A DNA stretch of 49,359 bases from a virus (lineage: Duplodnaviria; Heunggongvirae; Uroviricota; Caudoviricetes). Both the position numbers and the translations under genes were made by a program. Location of the stretch: positions 1-49,359 of the IMG/VR virus record IMGVR_UViG_2875722834_000005; one strand, written 5' to 3'. Under the pieces are notes generated by a model. That model did not search any database, was not told the origin of the DNA, and worked only from the letters and a program-made list of their open reading frames with translations. Below, in pieces: positions 1 to 39,980 of the stretch. Each line of letters begins with the position of its first letter. Position 1 is the first letter of the stretch.

Positions 1-549
1 TCAGCTAGCTGGAAACTTTTTATACAGAGTTGAGAGCCCTACTCCATACGTTTTTGATACGCTTTGTCGTGATTCACCGGTTGCCATCCGCTCCCCCATT
101 TCCCGCCATTGCTCATCCGTGAACTTAGGCCTGCGACCACCAACTCGCCCTTTTGCCCTGGCTACGGCCAGCCCTGCTAAGGTACGTTCGCTATTAAGAT
201 CAGATTCATATTGTGCTGCGGAAAGGATGTTACGAAAGTTATAGCGGCCGCTGGCTGTTTTGAGATCCACGCCATCGGTAATACTGCGGAAGTTGATACC
301 CTTTTCCTGTAACTGCTGGAACATCAACAGCGCATGCAGAACGTTGCGGCCTATCCTGTCCAGCTTCCAGACCACCAGTTCATCCCCCGGCTGCATAGTG
401 GCGATCAGCCGTTTTAGAACCGGCCGATTCGATTTCCTCCCGCTGGCATGCTCTTCAAAAATTTTCTCACAACCCGCTGACTTGAGCGCCGTTAGTTGCA
501 ATTCAGTGTCCTGGTGGTTTGTTGATACTCGGGCATAACCGTAAATCAT
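1..549 (-). CDS. Serine-type DNA invertase (Hin/Gin/Pin family site-specific recombinase)
   Basis: 182-aa ORF; N-terminal resolvase motif GYARVSTNHQ with catalytic Ser, C-terminal HTH-like tail; size typical of Pin/Hin invertases. Confidence 0.8.
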   Translation of the reverse strand: MIYGYARVSTNHQDTELQLTALKSAGCEKIFEEHASGRKSNRPVLKRLIATMQPGDELVVWKLDRIGRNVLHALLMFQQLQEKGINFRSITDGVDLKTASGRYNFRNILSAAQYESDLNSERTLAGLAVARAKGRVGGRRPKFTDEQWREMGERMATGESRQSVSKTYGVGLSTLYKKFPAS

Positions 550-583: not shown

Positions 584-740
584 GCGAAATATCACCTGAT
601 TCAGAAAAATATTTGAAAGGTTGGTTTGGGAGAAGCGGCAAAACGGGATGTGGGAACAGGGGAAAATCAGATACCGGATATGGCTTTTTTTGCCAGTGGT
701 GATGGATGGATGAAATTACCCAACGGTAAAATCCTGCAAT

Positions 741-977
741 ATGGTCGAGGTGCGGTTACGCCGCCGAGGTATCGATACAATTGTGTTATGTGGGATCTCG
801 ACCAATATCGGTGTTGAATCCACCGCCCGCAATGCCTGGGAACTTGGCTTTAATCTGGTGATTGCCGAAGACGCCTGTAGTGCCGCCAGCGCCGAGCAAC
901 ACAATAACAGCATTAATCATATCTACCCGCGCATCGCCCGTGTGCGTAGCGTGGAAGAGATCCTTCACGCGTTATGA
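741..977 (+). pseudogene. 3' fragment of isochorismatase-family hydrolase (YecD/YcaC-like), N-terminus missing
   Basis: Translation [18 protein letters not shown]...AEDAC matches the conserved C-terminal half of isochorismatase-family proteins; no in-frame N-terminal half upstream. Confidence 0.55.
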
Positions 978-1066
978 TTTACATCGGTCTGCCGCAATGG
1001 TCGCATCCTAAATGGGTGCGGTTGGGGATCACCAGCCTTGAAGAGTATGCCCGCCACTTTAACTGA
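974..1066 (+). pseudogene. 5' fragment (30 codons) of a DUF72/YecE-like gene truncated by a stop at the prophage junction
   Basis: ATG overlaps the upstream stop (ATGA); [19 protein letters not shown] resembles DUF72/YecE N-termini; reading frame ends abruptly at 1064-1066. Confidence 0.5.
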
Positions 1067-1185: not shown

Positions 1186-1267
1186 ATGTCCCAACCATGC
1201 CCCAAAACTGGCATTTATGCCCCATACATGCCCCAAAAACCTTCCTTAAAAAGCTACGTGCCCAACC
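1186..1267 (+). repeat. Cluster of short direct repeats (ATGCCCCA x3; GYCCCAACC x2) next to the prophage junction
   Basis: Repeats read directly at 1198-1209, 1218-1228, 1229-1241 and 1187-1196, 1258-1267. Confidence 0.35.
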
Positions 1268-1268
1268 G

Positions 1269-1297
1269 TTGACGCTATATAAATAAACAGTATAAAT
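1269..1297 (+). promoter_or_regulatory. Putative sigma70 promoter with degenerate LexA-like box upstream of dinI-like gene
   Basis: TTGACG (-35), TATAAAT (-10); spacer CTATATAAATAAACAG resembles the E. coli dinI SOS box but has CTAT instead of CTGT. Confidence 0.4.
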
Positions 1298-1330
1298 TGC
1301 GTGCAAAATCATTGTTGCTTTGGAGGCGGT

Positions 1331-1570
1331 ATGTTCGTTGAGTTGGTGTACGACAAACGGAATGTTGAAGGATTAACAGGTGCCAGAGAAATAATTCTGA
1401 ATGAGTTAACAAAGCGAGTGCACCGGATCTTTCCGGATGCAGAAGTGAAGGTTAAGCCGATGCAGGCGAACGGCTTAAACAGCGATGCCAGCAAGAGTGA
1501 TCAGGAAAAACTGAATCGCATGTTGGAAGATATGTTTGAAGAGGCCGATATGAGGCTGGCTGCGGGTTAA
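1331..1570 (+). CDS. dinI: DinI-like DNA damage-inducible protein
   Basis: 80-aa product resembles DinI in length and sequence pattern; GGAGG RBS 4 nt upstream of ATG. Confidence 0.8.
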   Translation: MFVELVYDKRNVEGLTGAREIILNELTKRVHRIFPDAEVKVKPMQANGLNSDASKSDQEKLNRMLEDMFEEADMRLAAG

Positions 1571-2034
1571 ATCCTGAAAGCCCCAGAGAGTTATGTTGAA
1601 TGCTAGAGACCGCATCCTACCGGAAGTGGTTGCTGTAATTGTTCTCTTCTGTATAGGTCATATTGCGTTATCATATCAAGTGTAACGACTACGGGATCGT
1701 ACCTTCCATTAAGTATAAGTCGTACAACTACACATGTCGGCATGAATAAAAATAGTGGGGCTTAAATATTGGTGTTAGGCAAGATGATGAAGGCAAGTAT
1801 GTTACCAGTGACAGGCCTTTTACACAGTATGATCATAAATGGCAGGCAGACAATGCAGAGAGCTGGCAAAGTGCATGTGATGCCAGCAAATCAGTTAGTC
1901 AGCCGAGCCAGTCTTACCAGACGCCACAGTTTACAGCAGTTGTCGGTCAATCTGGGTTAAGCACTCTTTTTGGCTATGCCACGATAATATTAATATTCTG
2001 GGCTATTCTTAATTTTTTTATTCTCATACCCGGC

Positions 2035-2370
2035 ATGAGGGCAAGCTTATTATTACAAAGCGCGGGGGGCTTTTTTGCAATACCTGGGGCATGTATAGGG
2101 GTTATACTTAGACTTGTCCATTTAATACTTTTCGCCCCTTATGTTTTTATATACCCTTGGAGTGATGGTGACATTGCCAGACAATTTTGTTATCAGATGG
2201 GTGTGATTGCCGTAACTTCAATTCCAGCCCTAATTCTTTGGAAAAAAATAAAGAAATCCATACTTTATTTTACAGGAGCACTTGCGATATTATCCTATAT
2301 CTCCGTAGGTTTGTTGGCACTTAACAATGATTTATGGGCTTCTTTTAAAGTTTATCCATTTTTAAACTAG
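2035..2370 (+). CDS. Hypothetical small membrane protein in AT-rich segment
   Basis: ORF with hydrophobic segments in a markedly AT-rich stretch; start codon uncertain. Confidence 0.3.
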   Translation: MRASLLLQSAGGFFAIPGACIGVILRLVHLILFAPYVFIYPWSDGDIARQFCYQMGVIAVTSIPALILWKKIKKSILYFTGALAILSYISVGLLALNNDLWASFKVYPFLN

Positions 2371-2389
2371 CCCGGCAATTTCATGCCGT

Positions 2390-2718
2390 TCAGCTTACCC
2401 GATTCCCGCCCGTTGTGCGGGAATCTTTGTAGAAACCAGACCCGCCCACGATGTTACTGACGACAATATCACCGTCTTCGGGATGGAGGCTGAAATCAAT
2501 GAGAAGGTATGAACCATCGAGGATGCCGGCATTGATCATTGAATCTCTGGCGACGCGAAGTGTATATGTCGATGAGGGGTGGAGAATAAGATGCGACACA
2601 GATCGATGCCGCTCTCGATATAGTCAGCGGCAGGACTGGGAAAGCCTGCCGAAATGAGATCCCCATAAACAGGGATATATACCGGAACGTCCGGAAAAAT
2701 AAGGCGTTGTAGTTGCAT
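2390..2718 (-). pseudogene. umuD: umuD-like (LexA/S24 peptidase family) gene remnant, frameshifted and truncated; no umuC follows
   Basis: N-terminal frame (2718-2536) matches UmuD N-terminus (GFPSPAADY..IDL); second frame (2599-2390) matches the S24 core (RVARDSMI..DGDIVV); the two parts are in different frames. Confidence 0.7.
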
Positions 2719-2737
2719 AATTACCTCCTTTGTAACT

Positions 2738-2757
2738 TACTGTATATATATACAGTA
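2738..2757. promoter_or_regulatory. LexA operator (SOS box), perfect consensus palindrome
   Basis: TACTGTATATATATACAGTA read directly, 20 nt upstream of the umuD-like start and its AAGGAGG RBS. Confidence 0.8.
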
Positions 2758-2825
2758 GTTTTAATTTGAAGGCAGATCAATACTGGTTAAAACTATCAAT
2801 CACCAGAACAGGGATTATTCGCGCA

Positions 2826-4094
2826 TCAGCTCGGGCTACTGTCAGCACCACCACCTTGTTGTGCGGCTTTCAGTTTCTGGTTGAACACCGAACTTTCTGG
2901 CATTTCGAGACGCAGGTCTATCCATCGCCCGGCGGGAATATCCATCGGCTCACCTGCGACGATCATAGCGGTTTCACTGTCAAAGCGACGTTTAAAAACC
3001 GACACGATAATGGTTCCGCCCTGAGTGGATTGCGTCTCCACAAAACACAGGCGGTTGCCATTTGAATCCTGTGGGATTTCAATAGTCCAGCCGTCAGCGT
3101 GTAGCCCGACAGCGCCACGTATTTCATATACGCCAGTAGCAATTTTTTCCGCTGTAACGCCTTCCGCCTCCATATTGGTCGCGGCACAGCCAGAAAGTGA
3201 AAAATCTTCGAGAAAACCAGCAGGCATGCCTCTGTGATCATTGGTAAGTCGCACAACAGGTGAGGCTTTTTTTATAAACCCGTTTGCATCAACAGTGGTT
3301 GTCAGATTGTCCAGCAACAGACGGGTTGTTGTAACCCCCGCAGTGCCGTATCCGGACATTACACGGATGCCCCTGGTAAAATAATGCACGCTCATGAGAA
3401 ACCACGTATCGTTTGCTCCCACCCATAATGTGGGCGCACTTTGTGGAATTTCATAGAATTCACCCGTCATTGGCAATATGTTCTGTAGGGTTGCAAGACT
3501 GAATCCCCTCATTTTTGCCACGACGTTATCAATCACAGATTCACTGGTCGAATTATATTCGGATACAGGAAATCCTTTTTTCAAACCAAGCCCTTCACGT
3601 GCGCTGGCCTGGGTAGTACCGCCAGTACCGCCCTGCTTTACAGACAATGCTGTGGTCAGCCCTTCCAGACTGGTGATGTCTTTATTTACCCCTTTTTTTG
3701 CCATGCTGCCAATGGAGGGGATGCTCATGCTTACACCGTTGATGGTGACCGTGATCATCTGGTTGGCTGTAGTGCTGGCGAACGCCTCCCACGCGCCAAT
3801 ATTCTCGTCGTACTCTTTGATGAGCTGTGACATGGCCTGCGCCAGGCCGTCGACTGAGATATTGTCCGACACAAGGATTCCATACTTCTGGCCGCTCAGC
3901 GCCGGGGAAACTGCTGGCGTAACCGTCATTGACGTGGCGCTGTTCACGGATGAAATCTGAAACAGCTGCACCGGGTTAGACATCACGATAATCGTCTGGC
4001 CAGCGCGGACCTGGCTGGCGGGAGCTGTCCAGTTTGTGCCCGTCCCGGTGGCGGTATTTCCATTAATGGCGATGGTGCCGGTGTTATAAAGCAT
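2826..4094 (-). CDS. Tail fibre / receptor-binding protein
   Basis: 422 aa; N-terminal region with the QGGTGGTTQASAREGLGL motif common to tail fibre and tailspike anchors; sits at the distal end of the tail module; start taken at the second ATG, which has a GGAG RBS. Confidence 0.7.
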   Translation of the reverse strand: MLYNTGTIAINGNTATGTGTNWTAPASQVRAGQTIIVMSNPVQLFQISSVNSATSMTVTPAVSPALSGQKYGILVSDNISVDGLAQAMSQLIKEYDENIGAWEAFASTTANQMITVTINGVSMSIPSIGSMAKKGVNKDITSLEGLTTALSVKQGGTGGTTQASAREGLGLKKGFPVSEYNSTSESVIDNVVAKMRGFSLATLQNILPMTGEFYEIPQSAPTLWVGANDTWFLMSVHYFTRGIRVMSGYGTAGVTTTRLLLDNLTTTVDANGFIKKASPVVRLTNDHRGMPAGFLEDFSLSGCAATNMEAEGVTAEKIATGVYEIRGAVGLHADGWTIEIPQDSNGNRLCFVETQSTQGGTIIVSVFKRRFDSETAMIVAGEPMDIPAGRWIDLRLEMPESSVFNQKLKAAQQGGGADSSPS

Positions 4095-4154: not shown

Positions 4155-4388
4155 TTATTTGCAGGTTGTTTCGGTAAATGTATTCGCACTTACCCAGCGC
4201 CAGCTGAAAGGATATCCAGCCCGGTACTGCGTCTGGTTGTTTTGTTTACGCACACCGTAAATCTGAACCGTAGTTTCCTGACCGCCAACGATTGCAGTGC
4301 CGCTGCAAACTGGTTCCTGTTTCTCAATTACGCCAGCGCATCCTGTAAGCATGACAGCGCCTGCCATGCAGATAATCAGTTTTCTCAT
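4155..4388 (-). CDS. Small lipoprotein, possibly Cor-type superinfection-exclusion protein
   Basis: 77 aa with signal peptide and lipobox LTGC; located between the tip-fibre J gene and the tail fibre gene, as cor is in phi80/N15-type phages. Confidence 0.55.
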   Translation of the reverse strand: MRKLIICMAGAVMLTGCAGVIEKQEPVCSGTAIVGGQETTVQIYGVRKQNNQTQYRAGYPFSWRWVSANTFTETTCK

Positions 4389-4499
4389 TTTGATAGTATC
4401 CAGAGGAATTCAGTATCTTAGACGATACCAATACAATTCTGGTGGGTATAATTGATTGGATAGATCAATATTATGTTATTGATCGCTAAAAACGATCAA

Positions 4500-5174
4500 T
4501 CAATCATAGGCCGCTGTATTTATGGCGGTTAATGAAATGCCAGTATTCGTTCCCCCTCCAGGTGAACCTGCCCCAGTGGAGGTCCCCCCTGCGTTTATCC
4601 TCGTATTGGCCCCGTCAAACCTGCATGAAGAATAAGCATTTATCGTGTAGATAGTCGGAGGCTGGGTTGAATTATTCACAATGATGGTCTGACCCAACTG
4701 AGCAGGTGCAACGGCCCATGACCCGCTCAGCGTCTGGTCAATATTTATCCCGCCGTTTGCACCAGGCGTGCCAACCGTCTGCAGGTCTGATAGCACACGG
4801 GACTCATTAGTTAACACAAGCTTTCCGCTCGCATCCCATATTGCCAAACCCCATTTCGGTAATATCTGCGGGAATATGGCAAAAACGTACGCCGTTAAAG
4901 TGAAACTTTGGTTGTAGGGATTAACACCAGCAACATACACATTACCGCCGTTCCTGTAAGACATAACCGGAGTGGGCTGTGCTGTATTGGTGGTTTTGAT
5001 AAAAACCATCACTGGGTAATCAGCGTTTAAAGCGATATTTTGAGCAACCTGCTGAGAACTGCCATTCGCGGATGAATTGAAGGTATACTTCCCGTAAAGA
5101 CAGAAAGGCGTTGATTGTGGCGTTACAAAGGGATTCCCGTTATCCATTAATATCATCGCGCCAAATTCGGCCAT
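4500..5174 (-). CDS. Hypothetical tail-region protein (224 aa)
   Basis: ORF immediately downstream of J-like gene; Gly/Asn/Thr-rich; no recognised family. Confidence 0.5.
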   Translation of the reverse strand: MAEFGAMILMDNGNPFVTPQSTPFCLYGKYTFNSSANGSSQQVAQNIALNADYPVMVFIKTTNTAQPTPVMSYRNGGNVYVAGVNPYNQSFTLTAYVFAIFPQILPKWGLAIWDASGKLVLTNESRVLSDLQTVGTPGANGGINIDQTLSGSWAVAPAQLGQTIIVNNSTQPPTIYTINAYSSCRFDGANTRINAGGTSTGAGSPGGGTNTGISLTAINTAAYD

Positions 5175-37711: not shown

Positions 37712-38422
37712 ATGGAAAAGAAAAAGATTCTCACCCCCGCTCAAGTGGCTGATTCACAGCGTTTAAAAGCCCTTTACGAAGCGAAGAAAAAAGAACTGGG
37801 TATTACTCAGCAATCCATTGCGGACGCGCTGGACATTTCTCAGGGTGCCGTCGGCCATTACCTCAATGGAAGGAATGCCTTAAATACAGCGGTAGCATCG
37901 GTCTTTGCCAGGCTTCTTGGGGTTAGTGTCTCTGATTTCAGCCCGTCACTTGCGAAGGATATCTCTGATATGAGCTCGGTGGCGTCGGAAAATACTTCTT
38001 TCGCAGGGCATTATTCACCTGGCTCAAAATATCCGGTGATTAGCAAAGTTCAGGCGGGCGCCTGGTGTGAAGCTGTTGAGCCGTACACCCTTAAAGATAT
38101 CGACCTTTGGCTTGAATCAGATGCTCACATTCAGGGGGAGGCGTTCTGGCTGCAGGTTGATGGTGACTCAATGACGGCGCCAGCTGGCTTGAGCATTCCT
38201 GAAGGAACCTTTGTCCTCTTCGATACTGGTCGGGAGGCGATCAACGGAAGCTTGGTAATAGCAAAGCTATCCGATTCTAACGAGGCGACTTTTAAGAAGC
38301 TGGTGATCGATGGTGGGCAGAAGTACCTGAAGGGCCTTAACCCGCAATGGCCACTCGTGCCGATTAATGGTAACTGCCGTATCATTGGTGTAGCTGTAGA
38401 GACGAAGCTGCGGCTGGTCTGA
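37712..38422 (+). CDS. cI: CI repressor (HTH N-domain, S24 self-cleaving C-domain)
   Basis: Lambda CI-like blocks (KKELGITQQSIAD; FSPS; VQAG; GDSM; TFKKL); no leader before ATG, as for PRM transcripts. Confidence 0.9.
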   Translation: MEKKKILTPAQVADSQRLKALYEAKKKELGITQQSIADALDISQGAVGHYLNGRNALNTAVASVFARLLGVSVSDFSPSLAKDISDMSSVASENTSFAGHYSPGSKYPVISKVQAGAWCEAVEPYTLKDIDLWLESDAHIQGEAFWLQVDGDSMTAPAGLSIPEGTFVLFDTGREAINGSLVIAKLSDSNEATFKKLVIDGGQKYLKGLNPQWPLVPINGNCRIIGVAVETKLRLV

Positions 38423-38571: not shown

Positions 38572-39051
38572 ATGGATAAAATTAATTACCCACCCCTGTT
38601 TGAGCCACGGTTCCATGACATGGATGAAGCTGGATTAAAATCGTATTGTGTCGATTGCTTTCCTTCATCATCCAGGCGAGGCATGCTATACTGTAATTTT
38701 ATACAGCTACTCGAATCTATTCGAGAATTATCTGCTCAATATGGCTGTTTTACAGAAATATGGGTTGATGGTTCATACACCACGTCTAAACCAGAGCCTG
38801 ATGATATTGATATTTTGTTGGTATGTGACTATAGCAAGATAAACTCAATACCTGTCATGCTTCGGGGCCGCGTCGATAATTTGCTTGACCGAAACTACAT
38901 CAAACAAAACTACAAAATTGATGTCCTACTACTCATGAAGAATTTAGATGACCCTAACTATGATTATGAGTACTGGCGTAGCTACTGGCGCGGTTGGTTT
39001 GGTTTTGATCGCAGTGAAAACCCGAAAGGGTTAGTGAGGATTTTTTTATGA
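38572..39051 (+). CDS. Minimal nucleotidyltransferase-fold protein (159 aa), first gene of operon in rexAB-equivalent position
   Basis: GS-x8-DDIDILLV with downstream KIDV fits the Pol-beta NTase hG[GS]..DxD..D signature; AT-rich; downstream of cI. Confidence 0.55.
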   Translation: MDKINYPPLFEPRFHDMDEAGLKSYCVDCFPSSSRRGMLYCNFIQLLESIRELSAQYGCFTEIWVDGSYTTSKPEPDDIDILLVCDYSKINSIPVMLRGRVDNLLDRNYIKQNYKIDVLLLMKNLDDPNYDYEYWRSYWRGWFGFDRSENPKGLVRIFL

Positions 39052-39980
39052 ATGATAAATCAATGTTTAAAAATTGCGATAAACGCATTGATTTCATTCA
39101 AAAAGAAGTCGATGCAATGAAGCAAAACAAAACCAGGTCCTTTGCTGACATGCTTCTTTATCGCTCCATGGATTCTCATCTGAGCGATTTGAAGGCCGAA
39201 AAATTAAAGCAAGATAGTCGGCACCCACTTATCGATTTTTTTGAGCTGCGGCTGAAAGGCTCTGAGGTTGACTTTGGCTCTATTCCTTTAGAGCTGCTTG
39301 GGGCTATTTCAACAAATCTTGCAGCGCTAATACAAAGAGCAACACACAAAATTGCCTCAGGCAAGGACTCAAAAAAAGTTCCCTACGACGTGAAAAGCTC
39401 CTTAAACCTCAGGCTGGCTGATTTATCCCCTGGGTCTACAAAATTGGGCGTCACCTTCTCTACAGGAATAGCAGAATTAGTAGAAACAGTACCCAGCAAG
39501 GCTGTAAAAGGCATATTCGATTTGTTGTTAAGCGATGACGACAACAACTTCATGAATCACGTCGCTGAAATTGGATACAATTCCACTGTAAGCCTTAAGA
39601 GAATCGTAGAGGAATGTGATAAACACAACTTAACATTTGATGCAAGTTGGACCGGTCCATTTAGTAATGGCACCAAGGTGGCAACTATTGACTCCAATAA
39701 AATTAAGTACTTGGTGAGTAGACTTACATCAACCATTTCATCCCCTCCCATTACTGAAACGGTTACAGGCGAACTGGTCGTTCTATCCAAATATGGGAAG
39801 CTGGAGCTTGATGTTGGTGGTGAACATTTAAAGGCTTCCTATCCGATTGAAATGCTAGATTTAATACAAAAAAAACACAAGGTCGGACAGATTGTTTCTC
39901 TTTTAGTGGAGACTACTGAGATTCACAATGATCGCATAGGTCTGTACCGTAAAAACCATCTTGTTAAATCGGTTCTTTAA
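39048..39980 (+). CDS. Hypothetical 310-aa partner protein, translationally coupled to the NTase-fold gene
   Basis: Start ATG overlaps upstream TGA (ATGA); no recognisable motifs; followed by a strong terminator. Confidence 0.55.
   Translation: MNDKSMFKNCDKRIDFIQKEVDAMKQNKTRSFADMLLYRSMDSHLSDLKAEKLKQDSRHPLIDFFELRLKGSEVDFGSIPLELLGAISTNLAALIQRATHKIASGKDSKKVPYDVKSSLNLRLADLSPGSTKLGVTFSTGIAELVETVPSKAVKGIFDLLLSDDDNNFMNHVAEIGYNSTVSLKRIVEECDKHNLTFDASWTGPFSNGTKVATIDSNKIKYLVSRLTSTISSPPITETVTGELVVLSKYGKLELDVGGEHLKASYPIEMLDLIQKKHKVGQIVSLLVETTEIHNDRIGLYRKNHLVKSVL

Follow-up and report, generated by a model that had tools for sequence, protein, structure and literature searches.

The SOS-linked genes near one end of the Caudoviricetes record IMGVR_UViG_2875722834_000005 are very probably passively decaying cargo of an Escherichia coli prophage. 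The stretch analyzed, here called the window, is the whole record of 49,359 nucleotides (nt), and all coordinates given below are window positions. One accessory slot holds an intact dinI homologue with a mutated LexA operator, an orphan open reading frame (ORF) for a predicted membrane protein that we call ORF200, and, convergent with ORF200, the dead 5' stub of a umuDC operon that still carries a consensus LexA box (Table 1). The locus is a decayed case of the LexA-controlled umuD(C) accessory cassettes known from temperate phages, standing beside a dinI accessory gene of a known type, and as ordinary decay of prophage cargo it holds nothing surprising to a specialist. What this analysis adds is the ancestry of the stub and its exact lesions, the finding that its frameshift is real and old, and the recognition of the dinI box as a single-mutation derivative of a canonical operator.

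An earlier note, made from the window alone, had described a umuD-like gene that is frameshifted at about 2560-2600, truncated, and without umuC, and this description is borne out throughout. With the frame repaired, the stub translation matches Pfam model Peptidase_S24 (PF00717) at 7.6e-13, over profile positions 1-75 of 116 only, PHROG 811 ("UmuD-like protein") over positions 10-89 of 140, and E. coli UmuD (PDB 8GMT) at 6.9e-21 over residues 13-92, ungapped and in the same numbering. The frameshift is the loss of a single nt within the interval that the note had estimated. It divides the gene into two frames, neither holding a complete S24 domain. Residues 1-40 of the first-frame product are the UmuD N-terminal arm, including the Ala24-Gly25 cleavage site, while the other 20 residues are out of frame. 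The second-frame product has its Ser60 motif altered from GDSM to RDSM and ends with a 16-residue foreign tail. Beyond the junction where homology to intact umuD genes stops, the sequence is that of the ORF200 terminator region, which takes the place of Lys97, the C-terminal strands and umuC. Codons for Ala24-Gly25 and for Ser60 are present, the latter out of frame, and the Lys97 half of the catalytic dyad is deleted; the gene found downstream, where partner umuC would stand, is ORF200, which meets the stub with its 3' end.

Because Lys97, the C-terminal strands and a partner UmuC are all missing, and because GDSM has become RDSM, the stub is, as read from its sequence, unable to encode a functional UmuD or S24 protein. 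Rescue of the frame is irrelevant to this conclusion, since the C-terminus is missing anyway: a repaired-frame protein would run to residue ~92, followed by the 16-residue foreign tail, and the truncation removes Lys97 regardless of the frameshift. Programmed frameshifting and transcriptional slippage were considered and rejected, the site (GAT CT/G TGT, with the slash at the deletion) containing neither a slippery heptamer nor a homopolymer.

The frameshift, moreover, is not an artifact. Sequencing error was the outcome that the earlier note had named as fatal to its claim, and the corresponding alternative holds that umuD is intact, the frameshift arose in sequencing or assembly, and the gene makes a working lone UmuD-type protein like HumD of phage P1 or gp26 of phage N15. 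Both P1 and N15 do have lone LexA-controlled UmuD'-like genes, that of N15 standing in the same slot, and RefSeq labels the 69-residue ORF "S24 family peptidase" rather than pseudogene. Against this, the related loci L009 (97% identical to the window over the module), L016-18 (95%) and L029 show the same deletion and the same junction, L029 with one additional deletion. Because the identical deletion and junction recur in independent assemblies and in lineages diverged by 3-5%, the frameshift must be real. With no homopolymer at the site (GATCT/GTG), and with Lys97 and about 50 C-terminal residues missing even after repair of the frame, so that only 75 of 116 S24 positions are covered, we give the idea of an intact umuD next to no credence.

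The stub is rare and scattered. Among 5,426 complete E. coli genomes it occurs in one, strain SZQ1, at 100% identity, and most phages of the phi80/mEp237 type are without it. In a larger collection, the exact 69-residue ORF was found on 13 contigs and in three contexts: prophages integrated at yecE, with the order aspS-yecD-dinI-ORF200-stub-tail fibre, prophages integrated at yciI, and one other. Loci L030 and L031 carry a related umuD that has no frameshift and is independently truncated at codon ~57, with the LexA box and ribosome-binding site kept. One stub-bearing assembly, L012 (GCA_053425735.1), has a reverse-transcriptase gene (RVT_1) in positions 1-700, where all the other stub-bearing assemblies have the tail fibre; this gene ends ~200 bp upstream of the 69-residue stub ORF.

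The ancestry of the stub is readily traced. By tblastn against phage genomes, its best match is in Cronobacter phage ENT39118, with 70.7% identity over residues 1-91, in a phage whose gene order is tail fibre, umuD (145 residues), umuC (421 residues), integrase. A large protein search returned intact 145-residue homologs up to 88% identical, and the 88%-identical umuD lies in a prophage of Enterobacter sp. kpr-6, between a tail-fibre gene and a 422-residue umuC with IMS domains. The two operons share with the window the slot, a promoter overlapped by a LexA box, and a ribosome-binding site of the AGGAGG type, with protein identities of 70.7% (ENT39118) and 88% (kpr-6) over residues 1-92, but they are intact, encoding a 145-residue UmuD with both Ser60 and Lys97 and a UmuC of 421-422 residues, whereas the window gene is frameshifted at codon 40, truncated at codon ~92 and without umuC. 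N15, whose structural genes are ~90% identical to those of this prophage, has its UmuD'-like gene 26, with no umuC, in the identical slot after the tail-fibre gene. Like the window gene, N15 gene 26 and P1 humD (LexA-regulated, and annotated as complementing E. coli UmuD') have a LexA box directly upstream and no linked umuC. Their products, however, start at the equivalent of Gly25 and possess a complete C-terminal domain, while the window gene retains the N-terminal arm and has no residues beyond ~92. Lacking the C-terminal third, and being frameshifted, it cannot belong to the HumD type. Relative to the chromosomal umuDC and dinI of E. coli, both copies in the window are phage-borne and diverged, the one dead and the other with a mutated operator.

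The same slot holds yet another cassette in L002 (E. coli NCTC 13148, NZ_OZ510750.1, positions 4236-4850), a yecE-integrated prophage. There, behind the LexA box TACTGTGTATGCATACAGTA (locus + strand), a 79-residue PHROG 3893 protein and a 137-residue S24/S26 peptidase are encoded in frames that overlap at a run of seven C; these could be one frameshifted 190-residue gene or an assembly error.

What the stub has kept is its control region. The perfect consensus SOS box and strong ribosome-binding site that the earlier note had seen on a dead gene are there as described. The operator matches TACTG(TA)5CAGTA over the promoter at all 20 positions; in 100 shuffles of the window no match to it was found within three mismatches, and the window contains two CTGT-N8-ACAG cores where 0.47 are expected. 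The box is homologous to those preceding the intact umuD genes of ENT39118 and Enterobacter sp. kpr-6 and preceding N15 gene 26, and it sits in a control region common to all four: a TTGAxx or TTGCAT -35 element (TTGATT in ENT39118, TTGAAT in Enterobacter, TTGCAT in N15, all at the same spacing), 17 nt, a TACTGT that opens the LexA box, and an AGGAGG-type ribosome-binding site. Since the layout of -35, -10 and operator is that of the intact relatives, and no terminator faces in that direction, SOS-dependent transcription from the stub promoter, which the note had expected to run toward the AT-rich segment downstream, is plausible. E. coli has dozens of LexA operators. The note's further proposal, that the stub operator would titrate LexA, does not stand: one extra operator set against the ~1,300 LexA molecules per uninduced cell given in the review PMC6590174 would have a negligible effect.

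Persistence of a perfect operator on a dead gene might be taken to indicate selection, but comparison among lineages suggests otherwise. Read in gene orientation, the stub box is TACTGTATATATATACAGTA in the window lineage, TACTGTATATATACACAGTA (ending in ...ATACACAGTA) in L009, L029 and L030, and TACTGCATATATACACAGTA in L017; the intact umuD genes have TACTGTATATAAACACAGTT and TACTGTATAAATACACAGTA. The box thus shows zero to two changes per 20 bases among lineages, alongside ~8.6% divergence of the stub itself between the window and L017, and the lineages compared give no sign that the operator is better conserved than the pseudogene. The window's perfect box appears to be one drift step away from the common form, with another lineage having drifted the other way, which is not the pattern of a constrained site. 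Position offers the best explanation for its survival. The control region occupies ~110 bp between the stop codon (2826) of an essential tail-fibre gene and the stub ATG, and it would have outlasted both truncations because each removed only the 3' part of umuD and what lay beyond.

The second SOS-linked gene of the slot is intact. That it is a DinI homologue, as the earlier note had it, is supported by Pfam model PF06183 (1.5e-20; 73.7 bits, with the cut-off at 24.2; positions 3-61 of the 63-position profile), by PHROG 189, and by the structure of E. coli DinI, 1GHH (1.5e-4, aligned over residues 15-75); in strain SZQ1, RefSeq labels the gene "DinI family protein". DinI binds RecA filaments and modulates the RecA coprotease, according to Yasuda 1998 and Lusetti 2004 as cited in PMC6590174. 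Homology suggests that the window protein would likewise bind RecA filaments. The gene and its promoter share ~97% identity with their counterparts in the phi80-like prophage of E. coli K-12 strain XL10-Gold. Phage mEp237 has the same promoter, also annotated there, and a box with CTGT, before its gp25 ("RecA filament binding protein DinI"). A promoter scan of the window reported the TTGACG at 1269.

The box filling the spacer of this promoter had been called degenerate and LexA-like, an assessment that can now be refined. Its core reads CTAT-N8-ACAG, one base away from CTGT-N8-ACAG, so that in place of the operator pattern CTG-N10-CAG the window has CTA-N10-CAG (1275-1290), with a G-to-A change at 1277. 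In mEp237 and in the XL10-Gold prophage the box is TTGACACTGTATAAATAAACAGTA; it begins TTGACGCTGT... in strain MB06232 and TTGATGCTGT... in strain 23AR0998. CTGT is thus found in all four of these relatives, and CTAT only in the main stub-bearing lineage. The E. coli dinI box, which we take to be ACCTGTATAAATAACCAGTA, has nearly the same core as CGCTATATAAATAAACAGTA. Two other relatives, L009 and L017, have a different 5' half of dinI, with two canonical boxes. On an approximate Berg-von Hippel heterology index (HI), computed from a matrix of 27 E. coli boxes rather than the Lewis et al. matrix and not comparable with published values, the window dinI box scores 8.6, the mEp237 allele 2.75 and the stub box 0; by the same approximate matrix the dinI box ranks third among LexA-like 20-mers in the window. 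In functional LexA half-sites the CTG trinucleotide is invariant, and it is the target of operator-constitutive mutations. As its bases read, the dinI box differs from a canonical operator only by one lineage-specific G-to-A substitution in this CTG, and because the change falls on an invariant position, LexA repression of dinI is probably weakened and its expression partly constitutive, rather than under normal SOS control.

The dinI homologues of the prophages Gifsy-1/2/3 resemble the window gene in having a LexA-type box in the promoter, and regulation by LexA and SOS induction have been demonstrated for them (PMC3121763; PMC8072944). A reading modeled on them would make dinI and what follows it a LexA-controlled induction module, dinI followed by a small antirepressor, with the SOS elements controlling prophage induction. 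It draws some support from the 197 bp after dinI, which are nearly invariant between lineages and contain a 30-codon ORF. The window, however, has CTA for the invariant CTG and no antirepressor or irsA downstream, and its CI-type repressor (gene at 37712-38422), with HTH_3 and a complete Peptidase_S24 autocleavage domain, is of a cleavable kind for which an antirepressor is not needed. In the closest phages, mEp237 and the phi80-like prophage, the terminator of the tail-fibre gene follows directly after dinI, with no extra gene between. Divergence of the spacer is no different from that of adjacent ORF200, and neither an Rfam nor a protein-family match to it was found. We therefore hold a Gifsy-type module to be highly improbable. 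The spacer itself (1571-1767) shows one substitution between lineages that differ by 5% overall, and its small ORF (1593-1685, + strand) would encode the hydrophobic peptide MLNARDRILPEVVAVIVLFCIGHIALSYQV.

ORF200 forms the AT-rich segment of the slot (GC content 0.35-0.40 across 2001-2400). Its protein is conserved at the N-terminus and is predicted to contain four hydrophobic segments, and it gave no match in Pfam, PHROG or PADLOC. Homologs make up only two clusters among 5.8 billion proteins, one 91% and the other 46% identical, both of ~200 residues; the 46% homolog lies in a chromosomal, non-phage setting without a LexA box. The terminator scan found no terminator between dinI and ORF200, and co-transcription of the two is possible. 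In the window the start codon of ORF200 reads ATT (1768-1770, the difference being at 1770), while SZQ1, L009 and the L016-18 lineage have ATG, so the gene is probably silenced or poorly translated in this strain. L008 apparently also has ATT, and no 200-residue gene was called there. L014 shows a further disruption of ORF200. The hairpin beyond the 3' end provides ORF200 with a terminator-like end on the + strand; on the minus strand it has no U-tract, and no terminator faces the stub transcript, which would enter, in antisense, a gene with an already altered start codon.

From the gene identities, lesions, ancestry and distribution observed, we infer how the slot came to its present state and how it would behave, including LexA binding, activity of the stub promoter, derepression of dinI, and a lack of biological consequence. 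Illegitimate recombination would have replaced everything past umuD codon ~92 with the ORF200 terminator region, and the 1-nt deletion shifts the frame at codon 40. In uninduced cells LexA would occupy the perfect stub box, and the dinI promoter would be leaky or constitutive. In SOS-induced cells the stub promoter would probably be released late, because its operator is of maximal affinity, and would give a short transcript encoding a 60-residue junk peptide. As the hairpin has no U-tract in that direction, the RNA would either be stopped by Rho in its untranslated part or continue antisense into ORF200.

A contrasting interpretation, which we consider unlikely, is co-option of the stub: convergent or antisense transcription induced by SOS would lower ORF200 expression, or the 60-residue UmuD-arm peptide, with its Ala-Gly cleavage site, would act as a decoy for RecA*, Lon or ClpXP, and the control elements would be under selection. 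Closely akin, and in our view distinctly unlikely, is retention of the orphaned maximal-affinity operator and promoter as a regulatory element, acting through late-SOS convergent firing into ORF200 or through the 60-residue UmuD-arm peptide; if true, it would couple an accessory function of the prophage to DNA damage. In favor of co-option, every lineage, the independently truncated one among them, has kept promoter, operator and AGGAGG intact, no terminator stands between the stub transcript and ORF200, and within the module ORF200 is the most conserved gene (dS, synonymous divergence, 0.03). Over the still-in-frame codons 1-40, the ratio of non-synonymous to synonymous divergence (dN/dS) between the window and L017 is 0.12.

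Several further observations tell against passive decay, or against the promoter and operator behavior supposed above. Between the window and L017, the stub as a whole has a dN/dS of 0.21, a synonymous excess that alone would suggest constraint, and codons 41-92, with five non-synonymous and four synonymous differences, are too few to tell from neutrality. The generic promoter scan did not flag the stub promoter, the -35 and -10 of which score 7 of 12, the -10 TACTGT matching the consensus at only 3 of 6 positions. For dinI, the approximate HI of 8.6 for the mutated box still falls among the values of E. coli boxes that are weak yet functional, and the gene may remain partly LexA-controlled.

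Purifying selection on the stub was nevertheless rejected, since its signal is confined to codons 1-40 and has the pattern of recombination. Over these codons the intact Enterobacter allele (L019) lies nearer to the window (dS 0.25) than L017 does (dS 0.33), which points to allele replacement by recombination upstream of the frameshift rather than to constraint. Between the window and L017 the stub (2441-2718) is 8.6% diverged, with a dS of 0.20, while ORF200 is ~1.3% diverged, and the junction is shared; this implies patchy recombination within the stub. The contrast between stub and ORF200 is explained by recombination only in part, as dS over codons 41-92 is 0.11, above the value for adjacent ORF200. 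Co-option fits poorly with much else. The operator drifts among lineages, to the point of CTGC in one half-site, and the module is decaying as a whole, with the ATG of ORF200 lost here, ORF200 disrupted in L014, and dinI frameshifted in L016-18. An element under selection also sits uneasily with the rarity of the stub in E. coli and its absence from most related phages. Finally, untranslated RNA downstream of a premature stop is a typical target of Rho. Passive decay of cargo remains the explanation we prefer.

The prophage that carries this slot is, on its sequence relationships, a phi80/mEp237-like E. coli prophage. Window positions 1-24217 match phage mEp237 at 98.2% identity across 88% of their length, and HK225, N15 and phi80 are also related to this region. 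The gene order in mEp237 is J, two small genes, cor, tail fibre, dinI on the opposite strand, DNA invertase, a phi80-type attP, and int. A phi80-like prophage adjoining yciI in XL10-Gold has the same arrangement as the mEp237 map, including the invertase and partial copies of the tail-fibre gene and of host yecD and yecE. Since those host fragments are present in a prophage at yciI, the corresponding pieces in the window (626-1066) are part of the phage genome. Window positions 1230-2860 are identical to E. coli CP025739.1. The dinI/umuD segment lies ~1.3-2.8 kb in from the tail-fibre (attR-proximal) end, and the window shows the prophage in reverse orientation. Its placement in the earlier note at the left end of the prophage is right insofar as the segment is near one end, but the invertase gene and the yecD' and yecE' fragments separate it from the att site. 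The segment is the accessory-gene ("moron") slot of a temperate siphovirus of the phi80/mEp237/N15 type, with the side tail-fibre gene to one side and the att-proximal end to the other. The invertase, tail-fibre fragment and yecD/yecE pieces look like the fossil of a yecE-integrated ancestor, and yecE-integrated relatives carry the same dinI-ORF200-stub module beside an intact yecD. Within 1000-2900, no known RNA element or tRNA was found. A literature search likewise found no specific description of this umuD stub or of the phi80 dinI.

Table 1. Features of the accessory slot and its surroundings, in window coordinates.
Feature	Position	Strand	Remarks
Hin/Pin-type invertase gene	1-549	-	mEp237 carries the same invertase
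Tail-fibre gene fragment	~660-760		
Host yecD fragment	741-977		
Host yecE fragment	974-1066		
dinI promoter	-35 TTGACG 1269-1274; -10 TATAAA 1291-1296	+	16-nt spacer; near-consensus sigma-70
LexA-type box CGCTATATAAATAAACAGTA	1273-1292		fills the dinI promoter spacer
dinI homologue, 79 residues, intact	1331-1570	+	Pfam PF06183, PHROG 189, PDB 1GHH
ORF200, orphan predicted membrane-protein gene, 200 residues	1768-2370	+	603-nt frame; hypothetical protein in SZQ1
Hairpin GATTCCCGC-N7-GCGGGAATC, 9-bp stem, then TTTGT	2401-2425	+	fold results and terminator scan
Second-frame umuD stub ORF, 69 residues, GTG start	2390-2599	-	RefSeq: "S24 family peptidase"
Junction, end of homology to intact umuD (codons ~91-94)	2438-2446	-	alignments with ENT39118 and Enterobacter umuD
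First-frame umuD stub ORF, 60 residues	2536-2718	-	ATG at 2718, stop at 2536
1-nt deletion, third base of codon 40 (CTT to CT)	2599/2600	-	DNA alignment with intact umuD genes
Shine-Dalgarno AGGAGG, 5 nt before ATG	2724-2729	-	kept in intact relatives
Consensus LexA operator TACTGTATATATATACAGTA	2738-2757		20/20 consensus, 0 mismatches, single copy in window
Likely -10 TACTGT, first six bases of the box in gene orientation	2757-2752	-	
Likely -35 TTGATC, 17 nt upstream of TACTGT	2775-2780	-	spacing as in intact relatives

Elsewhere in the window, the CI-type repressor is directly followed by two genes (38572-39980, + strand) that match PDC-M63 A/B, a candidate defence system in PADLOC (7e-40 and 7.5e-45); gene A is DUF6932. 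The second-best LexA-like box of the window, TACTGTAATTTTATACAGCT, lies at 38689-38708 inside the coding region of gene A and may be there by chance.

These findings are of little consequence except for annotation. In RefSeq and UniRef, the 69-residue entries named "S24 family peptidase" and "LexA family protein" represent pieces of a pseudogene, and predictors of SOS-controlled prophage genes that depend on LexA boxes would rank the dead stub as the best site in this prophage. The G-to-A allele of the dinI operator is a natural variant usable for examining how far a LexA half-site tolerates change. The accessory slot itself illustrates turnover, as the same place may hold umuDC, a lone umuD', an alternative S24 peptidase cassette, or nothing. 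The stub suggests, finally, that cis-regulatory sites can outlive their own gene through position alone.

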